Counted from the stretch's first letter, positions 10,517-18,207 are shown. The stretch is DNA of 30,112 bases from Capsulimonadales bacterium (GCA_033762295.1 JANRLW010000010.1:1-30112); one strand, 5' to 3'. Made by a program: numbers and translations. Notes: generated by a model not told the origin, from the sequence alone.

Positions 10517-11362
10517 TTACTCCCCAGGGATCAGGAACGTCAGGCCGTCGTAGGCGAGTTCCATGCCGGCGGGCAGGTTCCTCATCGTCGTCTCATAGTC
10601 AAAATGGTGCGAAAGGTGGTTGAAATAGGCACGCTCCGCACGAACGGCGGTCACGATGTCCATCGCCTGCTGCAGACCGAAATGGGTGGGATGCGGATCG
10701 GGTCGGACCGCGTCCAGAATCAACGTATCCAGGTCCGAAAGGTTCCCCATCGTCTCCTCCGGAATCGCCGAGACATCCGTCACATAGGCAAAGCGTGCGC
10801 CGAATTTGTAGGCCGTCACAGGTACCGTGCCGTGCCAGACCGACAGAGGCCGTATCGAAACCCCGCCGATCTCGAACGACTCCCCCGGTGTTATCTCGAT
10901 CAGGTCCAGTTGAGGCTTTCCGCCCCCTTCCTGTGTCTGTGTAAAACAATAAGCGAAAACCGTTCGAAGATGGTTCAGAACGTCAGGTGTTCCATAAACC
11001 GGAATCCGTGACCGGTTGACAAAATTAAACTGTCGTAGGTCATCCATTCCAAAGATATGGTCGGCGTGGGCGTGGGTGATGAGAACGGCGTCCACACGGT
11101 CGATACTCGCTCGAAGGGCCTGAGTCCGTAAATCCGGCGAGGTATCGACCAGAATATTCGTTGACGTTCCGTCCCGGCGCAGGGACCGTACCAGAATGGA
11201 AGGACGCAATCGTTTATTGAACGGGTCGGACGATCGGCAAACGGAACAGTCGCACCCGATTACCGGCACTCCCGTCGACGTCCCCGCCCCGAGTACCGTT
11301 ACCTCCAGCGCATCGGGCGACAACGGGGTTCGCGAGTGATAATGAGCGTTCGCCGATGGCAT
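10517..11362 (-). CDS. MBL-fold metallo-hydrolase (PhnP/LipB-like phosphodiesterase)
   Basis: LGAGTSTGVPVIGCDCSVC.S....NKRLRPS, VDTSPDLRTQ, THAHADHIFGMDDLR, YVTD, HPTHF, HLSH, LAYDGL. Start ATG 11362. Confidence 0.93.
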   Translation of the reverse strand: MPSANAHYHSRTPLSPDALEVTVLGAGTSTGVPVIGCDCSVCRSSDPFNKRLRPSILVRSLRRDGTSTNILVDTSPDLRTQALRASIDRVDAVLITHAHADHIFGMDDLRQFNFVNRSRIPVYGTPDVLNHLRTVFAYCFTQTQEGGGKPQLDLIEITPGESFEIGGVSIRPLSVWHGTVPVTAYKFGARFAYVTDVSAIPEETMGNLSDLDTLILDAVRPDPHPTHFGLQQAMDIVTAVRAERAYFNHLSHHFDYETTMRNLPAGMELAYDGLTFLIPGE

Positions 11363-11368
11363 ATCGAA

Positions 11369-11398
11369 ATTATAGGCGTTCCCCGCGAACCCTGTCAA
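11369..11398 (-). promoter_or_regulatory. Consensus sigma70 promoter giving a probable leaderless transcript
   Basis: TTGACA (11398-11393), 18 nt, TATAAT (11374-11369), then 6 nt and the ATG at 11362. Confidence 0.8.
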
Positions 11399-11413: not shown

Positions 11414-12616
11414 TCATTCCTGCGGTATCGCGAACAATGCGACATTTCCCTTTTTATTATCCCAGCGGATCGCGAGGCGGCCTTCCATCGCCGCCCGAAG
11501 GTCATTGCCCAGAATGGCGCCTCGCCATCCGGAAAACAATTCCGTCGGCCATTTCCCCTCGCATTTTCGGTTCGCCGCCAGAAACCGGAGATCATCACCG
11601 GACGCCAGCAGAGAAGGAGGAAGATTCTCCTGCACCGCTTTGACGCGGACGACCGCAGACAGCAGTTCGACAAGGACCGCGCCAGCCTCGTCCAAACCAA
11701 GCGGTGCGTCCGGTTGGGGGCGCAATTCAGGCGGTAACGCAAGCCCGCGCAGGACGCAGCCGACCAGCGCTTCCGCCGCCTTTTCCCCCAGATTCTGCGG
11801 CGCGGATCGCAGAGCCAGAACCTCGGAGGCCGTTTGCGGGACCCGGCGGGCGACCTCAATCAGAAAATCGTCCTTGACCACGCTTCGGCGCGGCTTGTCC
11901 CGCCGACGGGCTTCCAGGTCGCGCCAGATCGCCAACTCCCGGAGAACCGCCAGACCCCGCCCGTCCAGAACGTTCTTTCCGCCGACGCGTTCGTATAACG
12001 TTTCCTGCGCCGGCGTTTCGGCGGCTTGCGTTACCATTCGCTGCATCAGTTCGGCAGCCCATTCCGTACGTCCCCGTCTGTCCAGAAGCGAGGCGAGTTT
12101 CGTCTGCAAGGCATGAAGATAGCGAACATCGTTCTCGGCATAATCCCGCATCGCAGGCGTCAACGGGCGACGAGACCAGTCGGCAAAGCCCTCGTCCTTC
12201 GAGAGTTTCACCCCGAGTACCGATTGCACCAGAGGACCATACCCGGTCTGAAGACTGTACCCGGCGAAGGCGGCGGCAATCTGTGTGTCATAGACATTTT
12301 GCGGAGGCTGGCCGAGCCGGTGTGCGAGGATTTCCATATCCTGTCCGCCCGCGTGAACGATCTTGACGACGGACGGATCGCGAAGGATGTCCCCAAGTGG
12401 CCCCAGATCGAACCGGTCCACCGCCGGAACGTCGATCAAGGCGATAAGACGTCCGCCGTCCGCTGAAACCTGAATAATCTCCAGGACCGGATGATACGTA
12501 CGTTCTCGAATAAACTCGGTATCGAGGGCGAGACGGCTGTCATTCGCCAGTGCATTCCGAAACTCCAGGCAGACGGACTCAAGGGAGGAGCGGTCTGAAA
12601 CGTAACGGGCTGAAAT
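11414..12616 (-). CDS. rnd: Ribonuclease D (DEDDy exonuclease plus HRDC), probable ATT start
   Basis: The frame is open upstream of the ORF-track TTG (12439) and encodes ISARYVSDRSSLESVC...LALDTEFIRERTYHPVLEIIQV (ExoI). Downstream are KIVHAGGQDMEI, YDTQIAA, DWSRRPLT...YAENDV and the HRDC motif WRD..AR..DKP. SD GAGGA lies 7 nt before ATT 12616. Confidence 0.93.
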   Translation of the reverse strand: MSARYVSDRSSLESVCLEFRNALANDSRLALDTEFIRERTYHPVLEIIQVSADGGRLIALIDVPAVDRFDLGPLGDILRDPSVVKIVHAGGQDMEILAHRLGQPPQNVYDTQIAAAFAGYSLQTGYGPLVQSVLGVKLSKDEGFADWSRRPLTPAMRDYAENDVRYLHALQTKLASLLDRRGRTEWAAELMQRMVTQAAETPAQETLYERVGGKNVLDGRGLAVLRELAIWRDLEARRRDKPRRSVVKDDFLIEVARRVPQTASEVLALRSAPQNLGEKAAEALVGCVLRGLALPPELRPQPDAPLGLDEAGAVLVELLSAVVRVKAVQENLPPSLLASGDDLRFLAANRKCEGKWPTELFSGWRGAILGNDLRAAMEGRLAIRWDNKKGNVALFAIPQE

Positions 12617-12638
12617 CTTCGTATCCTCTGAATGCGAA

Positions 12639-12678
12639 ATAGCCTGCGGCGGACAATGCGGCAGGCTATCCTATTGTA
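12639..12678 (-). promoter_or_regulatory. -10 element (TACAAT) and 5'-leader hairpin of rnd
   Basis: TACAAT at 12678-12673, then a 9-bp inverted repeat ATAGCCTGC / GCAGGCTAT (12639-12669). Confidence 0.5.
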
Positions 12679-12735: not shown

Positions 12736-13038
12736 TCACGGGCACCGCTCAAAACCCTTTTCCGAATCCGGTTCACGAAGCCAGGGCGCCTCGTTTTCCA
12801 GTTCGCGAACGAGTGCCCGAAACCGCTCGCGCTTCGCGTCCCAGTTTTCCTCCGGAAAGGTCCAGCCCATCCCTTTCTCCCCGGCATAATCCCGAACGAA
12901 ATGGCCGGGATCCATCGTCAAACTGCTCGCAATGGCCATTCCTGACGTGGAACTGCCAGGATTCCCGACGCAAAGCGCCGCCGCCGACACCAGGGAAAAC
13001 ATACCGATCAACACACCCATCTTCGAGGACGATTTCAT
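12736..13038 (-). CDS. Small hypothetical protein (100 aa) with signal peptide or N-terminal TM helix
   Basis: MKSSSKMGVLIGMFSLVSAAALCVG...; purine-rich SD-like GGAAAGGAAGGG upstream; co-oriented with neighbours. No recognisable domain. Confidence 0.55.
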   Translation of the reverse strand: MKSSSKMGVLIGMFSLVSAAALCVGNPGSSTSGMAIASSLTMDPGHFVRDYAGEKGMGWTFPEENWDAKRERFRALVRELENEAPWLREPDSEKGFERCP

Positions 13039-13233
13039 CGCCGTTGTCCCTTCCTTTCCGAACCCAGACATCCGACGCCGGGTTACTCCCGGCTCCGATC
13101 GGTCGTTCGGTCGCCACGACGGAAGTGAAAACGGATAGTTCGTACACGGTTCCTTCCGCCGGAACGCCGATACACCTTCGGATAGGAAAATGATCGGATG
13201 AAACGGTAGAAGAAAGGAGGGTTAATTTGTTCA

Positions 13234-17452: not shown

Positions 17453-18207
17453 TGCGGATTCGCTTTCCCGGACTCGTCCGTCAACGAGAGGAAAACCTCC
17501 TCCAGCGTCGCGTCGTCCCCTCCGGTTCCACCATAACCCGCCCGATTCCGAAGATCCTGTACCGTTCCCTCCGCGATCAAATGCCCCTGACGCAGAATCA
17601 GGATTCGATCACAGAGGTTCTGCGCCGTATCCAGCATATGGGTCGATACCAGTACCGCCGCTCCGTCCTTTCGCGCCGCCTCAACGATGCTGCCCCGCAA
17701 TTCCCGCGCCCCGCGCGGGTCCAGACCGATCAGGGGTTCATCAAAAAGAAAGACCCTGGCGCGATGCAGAAACGCACAGGCGATCGTCAGCTTTTGCCGC
17801 ATGCCTTTGGAAAGGGTACCCACCAGTTCGTCGCGCTTCTCCTGCAAATCGAAACGGGTCAACAGTTCGTCCGCCCGCCGATCAAACTCCTCATTGGTAT
17901 CGTAGGCCAGAGCGATGAACCGTAGGTGCTCCCGTACGGTCAGCGTTTCGTAGGGGTTGGGCTGTTCCGGGACAAAGGCCAGAAGACGCTTCGCCTCCCG
18001 TTCGTCCCGCGACAGGTCGTGCGGTCCGACCAGCACTCGACCGGAGGTCGGACGGATGATGCCGGCGATACACCGTAACGTGGTCGTTTTCCCGGCCCCG
18101 TTCGGGCCGAGCAAGCCGACGATCTCACCACCGCCTACGGAAAAGGATAACTCCGATAACGCGGTAAAGGTACGGTAACGTTTGGTCAGGTTTTCGACAA
18201 TCAACAC
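17449..18207 (-). CDS. ABC transporter ATP-binding protein
   Basis: GPNGAGKTT, LSKGMRQK, FLFDEPLIGLDP, STH. Confidence 0.95.
   Translation of the reverse strand: MLIVENLTKRYRTFTALSELSFSVGGGEIVGLLGPNGAGKTTTLRCIAGIIRPTSGRVLVGPHDLSRDEREAKRLLAFVPEQPNPYETLTVREHLRFIALAYDTNEEFDRRADELLTRFDLQEKRDELVGTLSKGMRQKLTIACAFLHRARVFLFDEPLIGLDPRGARELRGSIVEAARKDGAAVLVSTHMLDTAQNLCDRILILRQGHLIAEGTVQDLRNRAGYGGTGGDDATLEEVFLSLTDESGKANPQ

Follow-up and report, generated by a model that had tools for sequence, protein, structure and literature searches.

The rnd Locus and Its Reading Frame

The window, i.e., the whole 30,112-nt stretch of DNA analysed here (GCA_033762295.1 JANRLW010000010.1:1-30112), comes from an uncultured Armatimonadota bacterium and carries on its minus strand a gene for ribonuclease D (RNase D, gene rnd) in which the conserved N-terminus cannot be reached from any ATG, GTG or TTG. 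We suggest, with a probability of roughly 0.8, that translation of this gene starts at an AUU codon at position 12616 behind a GAGGA Shine–Dalgarno (SD) sequence, that this weak start keeps the synthesis of the enzyme low, and that the start is preceded by a conserved hairpin leader. The features of the locus are the following:

11414..12616, minus strand: proposed rnd (RNase D) coding sequence, from ATT 12616 to TGA 11416-11414, 400 aa
12614..12616, minus strand: proposed AUU start codon, 31 codons before the ExoI Asp; ATT kept in the related locus L031 (611-613)
12624..12628, minus strand: SD sequence GAGGA, direct reading, 7 nt before ATT; CAGAGGATAC and the spacer are the same in L031
12631..12640, minus strand: U-rich tract 3′ of the hairpin, AUUUCGCAUU on RNA, direct reading
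12639..12669, minus strand: leader hairpin of 9 bp, a C.C mismatch, 2 bp and a 7-nt loop
12673..12678, minus strand: −10-like hexamer TACAAT, direct reading
12671..12673, minus strand: in-frame TAG closing the frame upstream, direct reading
12512..12523, minus strand: ExoI motif DTEF with the catalytic Asp and Glu, opposite LDTEF in the alignment with E. coli RNase D
12437..12439, minus strand: first canonical start, TTG, after ExoI; 341-aa product without the catalytic DxE
12662..12664, minus strand: CTG used as the start of the 416-aa call P0001, within the 5′ arm of the hairpin; rejected as start

Read directly, the rnd frame is closed upstream by TAG 12673-12671, and from this codon down to TTG 12439 it contains no ATG, GTG or TTG. 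The ExoI motif (LALDTEF, with DTEF at 12523-12512) is located 5′ of that first canonical start, from which the longest canonical open reading frame (ORF), 11414..12439 on the minus strand, would encode only 341 aa. This arrangement shows that rnd requires a non-canonical start: no canonical codon is able to give the conserved N-terminus, which is the mark of genes of the AUU/AUH type (starting at AUU, AUC or AUA). From the TAG to the ExoI Asp codon, the frame contains as near-cognate codons only CTG 12664, ATT 12640, ATT 12616 and two CTG located 15 and 9 codons ahead of this Asp. Among them, ATT 12616 opens a frame of 400 codons without an internal stop and stands 31 codons ahead of the ExoI Asp; it follows GAGGA (12628-12624) after a 7-nt spacer and occupies positions 12616-12614.

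An earlier note, made from this sequence alone, had placed the TAG, the hairpin, the ATT and TTG 12439 at these sites, with the SD 7 nt before the ATT and the hairpin between the TACAAT box and the SD, and all its coordinates are correct on the minus strand. It had also claimed that the ExoI motif lies upstream of the first ATG, GTG or TTG, as we find, and that ATT 12616 gives a 400-aa protein with the usual N-terminus of RNase D, with which the profile matches and the alignment to the E. coli enzyme given below agree.

The Protein Encoded by the Frame

Counted from ATT 12616, PF01612 matches residues 5-178 (profile positions 3-172 of 173, E 5.3e-32), the HRDC domain PF00570 follows the nuclease domain at residues 222-285 (E 1.8e-12), and TIGR01388 (rnd) extends over residues 7-375 (profile positions 3-359 of 363, E 2e-85), the Pfam and TIGR profiles beginning at residues 5-7. 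With NF008089, the protein scores 194 bits (cut-off 516). Its relatives bear the name ribonuclease D in the database. Residues 22-367 of E. coli RNase D (1yt3) align with residues 26-374 of the query, and in this alignment the ATT start produces an N-terminus four residues longer than that of the E. coli enzyme. The catalytic motifs ExoI (DxE), ExoII (D) and ExoIII (Yx3D) are all present: LDTEF, HAGGQDMEI and YAENDVRYL stand opposite LDTEF, HAGSEDLEV and YAAADVWYL in the E. coli enzyme. The gene encodes an intact RNase D composed of a DEDDy exonuclease domain and an HRDC domain, and it is present as a single copy in the 5.16-Mb, 132-contig genome.

The frame is under purifying selection, as can be seen from a comparison with L031, a metagenome locus on a 1597-nt contig whose product shares 76% amino acid identity with the window protein over residues 1-329, while only 30% of the fourfold-degenerate sites are identical. 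Within the first 60 codons, 44 of the 60 residues are the same in both.

Conservation of the Proposed Start Site and the Leader

The nucleotide identity of rnd between the window and L031 is 68.5%, and the fourfold-degenerate sites are identical at 44 of 145 positions; silent sites are saturated. The leader is far better preserved: from the −10 box to the ATT, 54 of 68 columns are identical, vs. 24 of 62 in the columns further upstream of the box. In L031 it reads gggTAAAATac-GATAGCCTGCCGC-atcgctt-GCGGCAGGCTAT-tttgtataggc-AGAGGATAC-aacg-ATT, so that CAGAGGATAC, the ATT, the −10-like box and the hairpin arms are all retained. The ATT of L031 is at 611-613 and its GAGGA at 599-603, with the same 7-nt spacer as in the window; the check proposed in the earlier note, that ATT and SD be kept in a relative, is answered by this locus. 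Such identity of the leader despite saturated silent sites shows that the leader and its ATT, the SD and the hairpin included, are held by selection.

L031 narrows the choice of the start on both sides. It has an in-frame TAG (593-595) six codons ahead of the ATT and a second TAG within the hairpin, and its first canonical start (ATG 782) comes after DTEF. Past the ATT, synonymous codons differ between the window and L031 at conserved residues (Ser TCA/TCC, Tyr TAC/TAT, Ser TCC/AGT, Glu GAG/GAA and Cys TGC/TGT), and therefore this stretch is translated. These data support ATT 12616, the only start that fits both the window and L031.

Start Codons of rnd in Relatives and Their Annotation

The family is represented by 32 species genomes, 30 of which have an rnd match at E <= 1e-60; the closest rnd among them shows only 65% identity. 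After pooling of all retrieved loci, L031 from a metagenome scan among them, and de-duplication, 183 unique loci included the N-terminal region and the motif, and in 174 of them the upstream in-frame stop was inside the locus. Most relatives have ATG or GTG about 27-35 codons ahead of the ExoI Asp. The lack of a canonical start is rare: no ATG, GTG or TTG occurs between the in-frame stop and this Asp in four of the 174 loci: the window locus (L001), L031, L032 and L010. All four fall among the 32 loci with at least 50% identity. The 142 more distant loci all have a canonical start in this stretch, although in two of them the sole one stands at most 20 codons before the Asp.

In the rnd tree (31 rows; L022, L023 and L118 were omitted as partial), L002 groups with L001 and L031 (support 99/98 and 100/97), and a separate clade (99/96) is formed by L032, the pair L010 and L015, and genus g2. 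By this topology, the loss of a canonical start occurs in at least two clades. The near-cognate codon itself is conserved as ATT in L031 and as an Ile codon at the same position in P0003, which is available as protein only. Candidate ATT or ATC starts are present also in the second clade. In L032, TACAAT and a 5-bp hairpin are followed by ATT; in L015, ATT is at −32 and the only canonical start is GTG at −41; in L010, ATC is at −34 after AAAGGAAA, and no canonical start occurs in 99 codons. L002 carries AAGGAG-ttt-GTG-ATT, where the SD is 6 nt from the ATT and 3 nt from the GTG. A leader common to the whole family was not found: the rnd leaders are heterogeneous, and the hairpin architecture is limited to L001, L031, L002 and L032.

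The gene calls bear traces of these starts. In the protein collection, the window gene is represented by P0001 (416 aa), which begins with MPHCPPQ, i.e., takes CTG 12664 as Met. P0002 and P0003 are the two closest protein relatives after L031. P0003 (69% identity) starts ...IEDTTITSRYIAD, with the N-terminus MQQAIFLIEDTTITSRYIAD, as would be expected if the same hairpin arm, SD (EDT = GAGGATAC) and Ile codon had been read through as protein. P0022 (60% identity) begins with MASRYI, its called start being aligned with the ATT of the window. Among the 120 best clusters, 24 failed the ExoI pattern; P0101 and P0113 carry a variant of it, which leaves 22 called without ExoI, and six further clusters begin only 16-20 residues before the Asp. 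We infer that P0077 (354 aa) is the gene call of L010; it is the sole truncated call linked to DNA that we examined, and the other short calls could be fragments or frameshifts.

To our knowledge, standard gene callers ignore AUU starts. The earlier note had expected them to truncate the catalytic site, which holds for relatives such as P0077 but not for the window gene, since P0001 is instead 16 residues too long. Both kinds of miscall, a protein overextended from a CTG in the hairpin and relatives called without the catalytic DxE, are of practical weight since correct starts matter for annotation, structure prediction and expression.

Several further leaders of the family have features of their own. 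In L005 and L007 (genus g3), TATAGT or TATATT is located 9 nt before the rnd ATG (ggacgaag[c]/ggacgaaag-ATG), which suggests that these putative mRNAs are leaderless or nearly so; their GGA(T)ACGAAG stretch resembles the spacer between the SD and the ATT in the window. In L022 (G007:C37:42424-43666), the rnd match is split into two pieces that overlap and contain one TGA, which suggests a frameshift, a broken gene or an assembly error; a hairpin of very high stability (−49.8 kcal/mol in 70 nt) is present in the leader of this locus.

The Leader Hairpin and the Putative Promoter

In the hairpin at 12669-12639, 9 bp (ATAGCCTGC/GCAGGCTAT) are followed by a C.C mismatch and another 2 bp, which close a loop of 7 nt. 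Taken alone, the hairpin has −19.2 kcal/mol and z −4.8, none of 200 shuffles being as stable; in its 101-nt context, z is −1.8 and 11 of 200 shuffles are as stable. The L031 hairpin has a mismatch-free stem with −26.9 kcal/mol and z −7.8. The U-tract AUUUCGCAUU of the window is interrupted (7 U in 11), and L031 has UAUUUUGUAU in its place. The hairpin pattern occurs once in the genome and is not a repeat element. Comparison of the leader with Rfam matched no family and returned one chance match elsewhere (E 0.93). Taken together, the hairpin and the U-tract constitute what the L031 comparison indicates to be a conserved 5′-leader element.

A co-oriented ORF precedes this element:

12736..13071, minus strand: ORF of 111 aa upstream of rnd and in the same orientation, without a Pfam match; the hairpin is a possible terminator for it

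Its product has a hydrophobic stretch at the N-terminus, and in L031 an ORF of 119 aa occupies the syntenic position (27% identity, E 2e-8). One can ask whether the hairpin does nothing for rnd translation and is only the intrinsic terminator of the upstream ORF. This view competes with the leader reading of the hairpin but leaves the AUU start intact; it is conceivable, but on balance rather doubtful. The hairpin comes 67 nt past the stop codon of that ORF, with a U-rich run on its 3′ side, the L031 hairpin is scanned as terminator-like, and in E. coli a hairpin with U8 lies directly 3′ of fadD. However, under the rule of a GC-rich stem and at least 5 T in 8, which calls the L031 hairpin, the window hairpin has 4 T in 8 and is not called. 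Moreover, L001, L031 and L032 all have a conserved −10-like box (TACAAT in the latter) past the upstream stop and ahead of the hairpin, and in L031 a promoter match of 10/12 (ATGACA-16-TAAAAT) ends 3 nt before the hairpin, so that the hairpin would sit at the 5′ end of the rnd mRNA. Besides, Zhang and Deutscher reportedly found in 1992 that the U-tract of the E. coli rnd leader is needed for translation.

We considered also a conserved upstream ORF, short and out of frame, starting from a TTG in the hairpin loop of the window and L031. It was rejected, as its frames relative to rnd differ and its peptides are unrelated.

Downstream of rnd, a perfect sigma-70 consensus occurs at 11360-11398 on the minus strand (TTGACA-18-TATAAT, 12/12), and ATG 11362 is 6 nt past its −10 box. 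Judging from this spacing, the mRNA of the downstream gene for a metallo-beta-lactamase (MBL)-fold hydrolase (PF12706, E 3e-40) is probably leaderless.

Alternative Start Sites

The comparison with L031 disfavours CTG 12664, ATT 12640 and a sequencing error alike. A start at CTG 12664, giving the 416-aa protein, is the one adopted in P0001, and AGGA is found 4 nt upstream of it. We consider it very unlikely, since this CTG is inside the 5′ arm of the hairpin and only 9-11 nt past the −10-like box, and its counterpart in L031 is out of frame, with two in-frame TAG between it and the ATT. The 16 extra residues would represent the hairpin and the SD read as protein, and no profile covers them.

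The remaining in-frame near-cognates, ATT 12640 and the two CTG located 15 and 9 codons before the Asp, are formally available, and the CTG at −9 is CTG in L031 too. Nevertheless, there is scarcely any likelihood that one of them is the start. ATT 12640 falls into the 3′ arm of the hairpin without an SD, and TAG 593-595 of L031 cuts this position off. At −15, L031 has CAG instead of CTG. The CTG at −9 encodes a conserved Leu (CTG or TTG in many distant relatives), and synonymous changes at conserved residues ahead of it show that this stretch is translated; a start there would also drop profile positions that match.

The least probable explanation, to which we give almost no weight, is that the ATT is an assembly or sequencing error for ATG in this 132-contig draft, or that rnd is a pseudogene in decay, with any expression coming from TTG 12439: L031, on an independent contig of a different organism, has ATT at this position despite saturated silent sites, the frame stays open for 400 codons, amino acid identity is 76% vs. 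30% at fourfold sites, and the residues of ExoI, ExoII and ExoIII can be aligned with the E. coli enzyme. Read-through of the TAG from the in-frame GTG 12715 was rejected, as L031 has several in-frame stops upstream.

Apparent AUH Starts in infC of the Family

A second gene of the same family points to a similar design of the start. In the window genome (contig C26, ATA 17633-17635) and in five family genomes (loci L202-L206), infC has an AGGAGG-like SD, 6 nt and then ATA or ATC; the codon is ATA in five genomes (the window genome and four relatives) and ATC in G003. Amino acid conservation (INxRDPRGFDRNRD...) begins at this ATA or ATC, and the later ATG is TTA in L204. From this pattern, AUH starts preceded by an SD appear to be used in the family. 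An ATA start of infC is found elsewhere too, in Deinococcus, according to the accessible part of PMC2830850. In G003, the candidate starts of rnd (L010) and infC (L202) are both ATC; in the window genome they are ATT and ATA.

Discussion

The mechanism that we propose for rnd can be summarised as follows. In the putative leader, a −10-like box comes first, followed by a GC-rich hairpin with a U-rich tract behind it, and then by the SD and the AUU. GAGGA, 7 nt upstream, would position the ribosome at AUU 12616, which the initiator tRNA would read as formyl-methionine. The weak codon, with an expected output of a few percent relative to AUG, would hold RNase D synthesis low, and initiation factor 3 (IF3), from what is established about its function, would discriminate against it; by this analogy, rnd is presumably sensitive to IF3. 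The hairpin may stabilise the mRNA at its 5′ end or promote the loading of ribosomes, as in E. coli rnd, and it might simultaneously act as the transcription terminator of the upstream gene.

Several observations weigh against this scheme. The TIGR01388 score reaches 287 bits and thereby narrowly misses the curated cut-off (298.95); the protein comes from a distant phylum. At the DNA level, the full leader is common to one relative only (L031). The arms of the hairpin contain no compensatory changes, and their sole difference breaks a pair in the window; therefore, an RNA structure and a DNA palindrome are inseparable here. The TACAAT that the earlier note had taken for a −10 box is indeed present and resembles the boxes of L031 and L032, but no −35 match accompanies it in the window. 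A genome-wide count of SD sequences before codons gave a modest ratio for ATG (1.53) and left ATT outside the 20 codons with the highest ratios, although such a count is too crude to detect rare AUU starts. The 3′ end of 16S rRNA, which would carry the anti-SD, is not assembled: the gene is represented by its 5′ part only (G000:C71:1-691, at a contig end; Rfam SSU positions 9-725, in three pieces), and a search with a short motif found nothing. A scan of this genome for coding-like extensions upstream of canonical starts, based on GC3 (GC content at third codon positions), returned 88 noisy candidates, missed rnd itself and was discarded.

RNase D is able to degrade through the CCA end of tRNA, as stated in the part of PMC3561954 available to us, and such degradation is a plausible reason for keeping its expression low. 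A weak start combined with a similar leader in two distant phyla suggests, by analogy, that selection for scarce RNase D may have acted repeatedly. We would extend this tentatively, as a speculation that is rather unlikely to hold in full: rnd of this family would have dropped canonical starts more than once and would share the “SD plus AUH” design with infC; the level of IF3 would set the output of RNase D, linking initiation fidelity to the trimming of tRNA 3′ ends; and the translational enhancer of E. coli rnd would have a convergent counterpart in this hairpin and U-tract. If true, a small circuit governed by IF3 would join initiation fidelity and tRNA 3′-end trimming.

One of the closest known systems is E. 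coli rnd. In the K-12 locus, the fadD stop is followed by a hairpin (GACGCCGG-ttaat-CCGGCGTC; −14.9 kcal/mol, z −5.5), T8, AAGAG and the annotated TTG start; reading it verified the statement in the earlier note of a UUG start behind a stem-loop. The same enzyme is encoded in both cases. Each locus has, in identical order, an upstream gene of the same orientation, a GC-rich hairpin with a U-rich tract behind it, and finally an SD with a weak start. The differences are UUG and U8 in E. coli vs. AUU and an interrupted U-tract here, and the sequences are unrelated. The likeness is convergent, as the note had supposed, and not inherited, because relatives of the same family have different leaders (e.g., L007 with TATATT 9 nt before ATG). 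U-rich regions enhance the translation of rnd mRNA, as mentioned in an excerpt of PMC5934652.

AUU starts are very rare; the earlier note had also called them rare, with E. coli infC (IF3) and pcnB (poly(A) polymerase I) as examples: these are the two confirmed AUU genes of E. coli in the available portion of 10.1101/063800, where near-cognate starts reach 1-2% of the AUG level in reporters. In both of them, as proposed for rnd, AUU limits the synthesis of a protein of the translation or RNA machinery, and the proper N-terminus arises only from AUU (10.1101/063800 and PMC3561954, as far as accessible). The window differs from them in the gene, rnd, and in its good SD, vs. the poor ribosome-binding site of pcnB (PMC3561954, same excerpt). 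In Deinococcus, dnaA with ATC, rpsL with CTG and infC with ATA are likewise conserved housekeeping genes with AUH or CUG starts that were mis-annotated by callers; they are documented by N-terminal peptides in the accessible part of PMC2830850, whereas the start of rnd is deduced by comparing sequences. The rare ATT start of ebpA of Enterococcus faecalis attenuates expression, and its annotated start is a downstream ATG, according to the part of PMC4447247 at hand, although ebpA is a pilus gene of a Firmicute unrelated to RNA processing. In the limited collection of literature searched, we found no report of an rnd initiated at AUU. The AUU-initiated rnd proposed here is an addition to the known AUU/AUH genes infC, pcnB, ebpA and Deinococcus dnaA.

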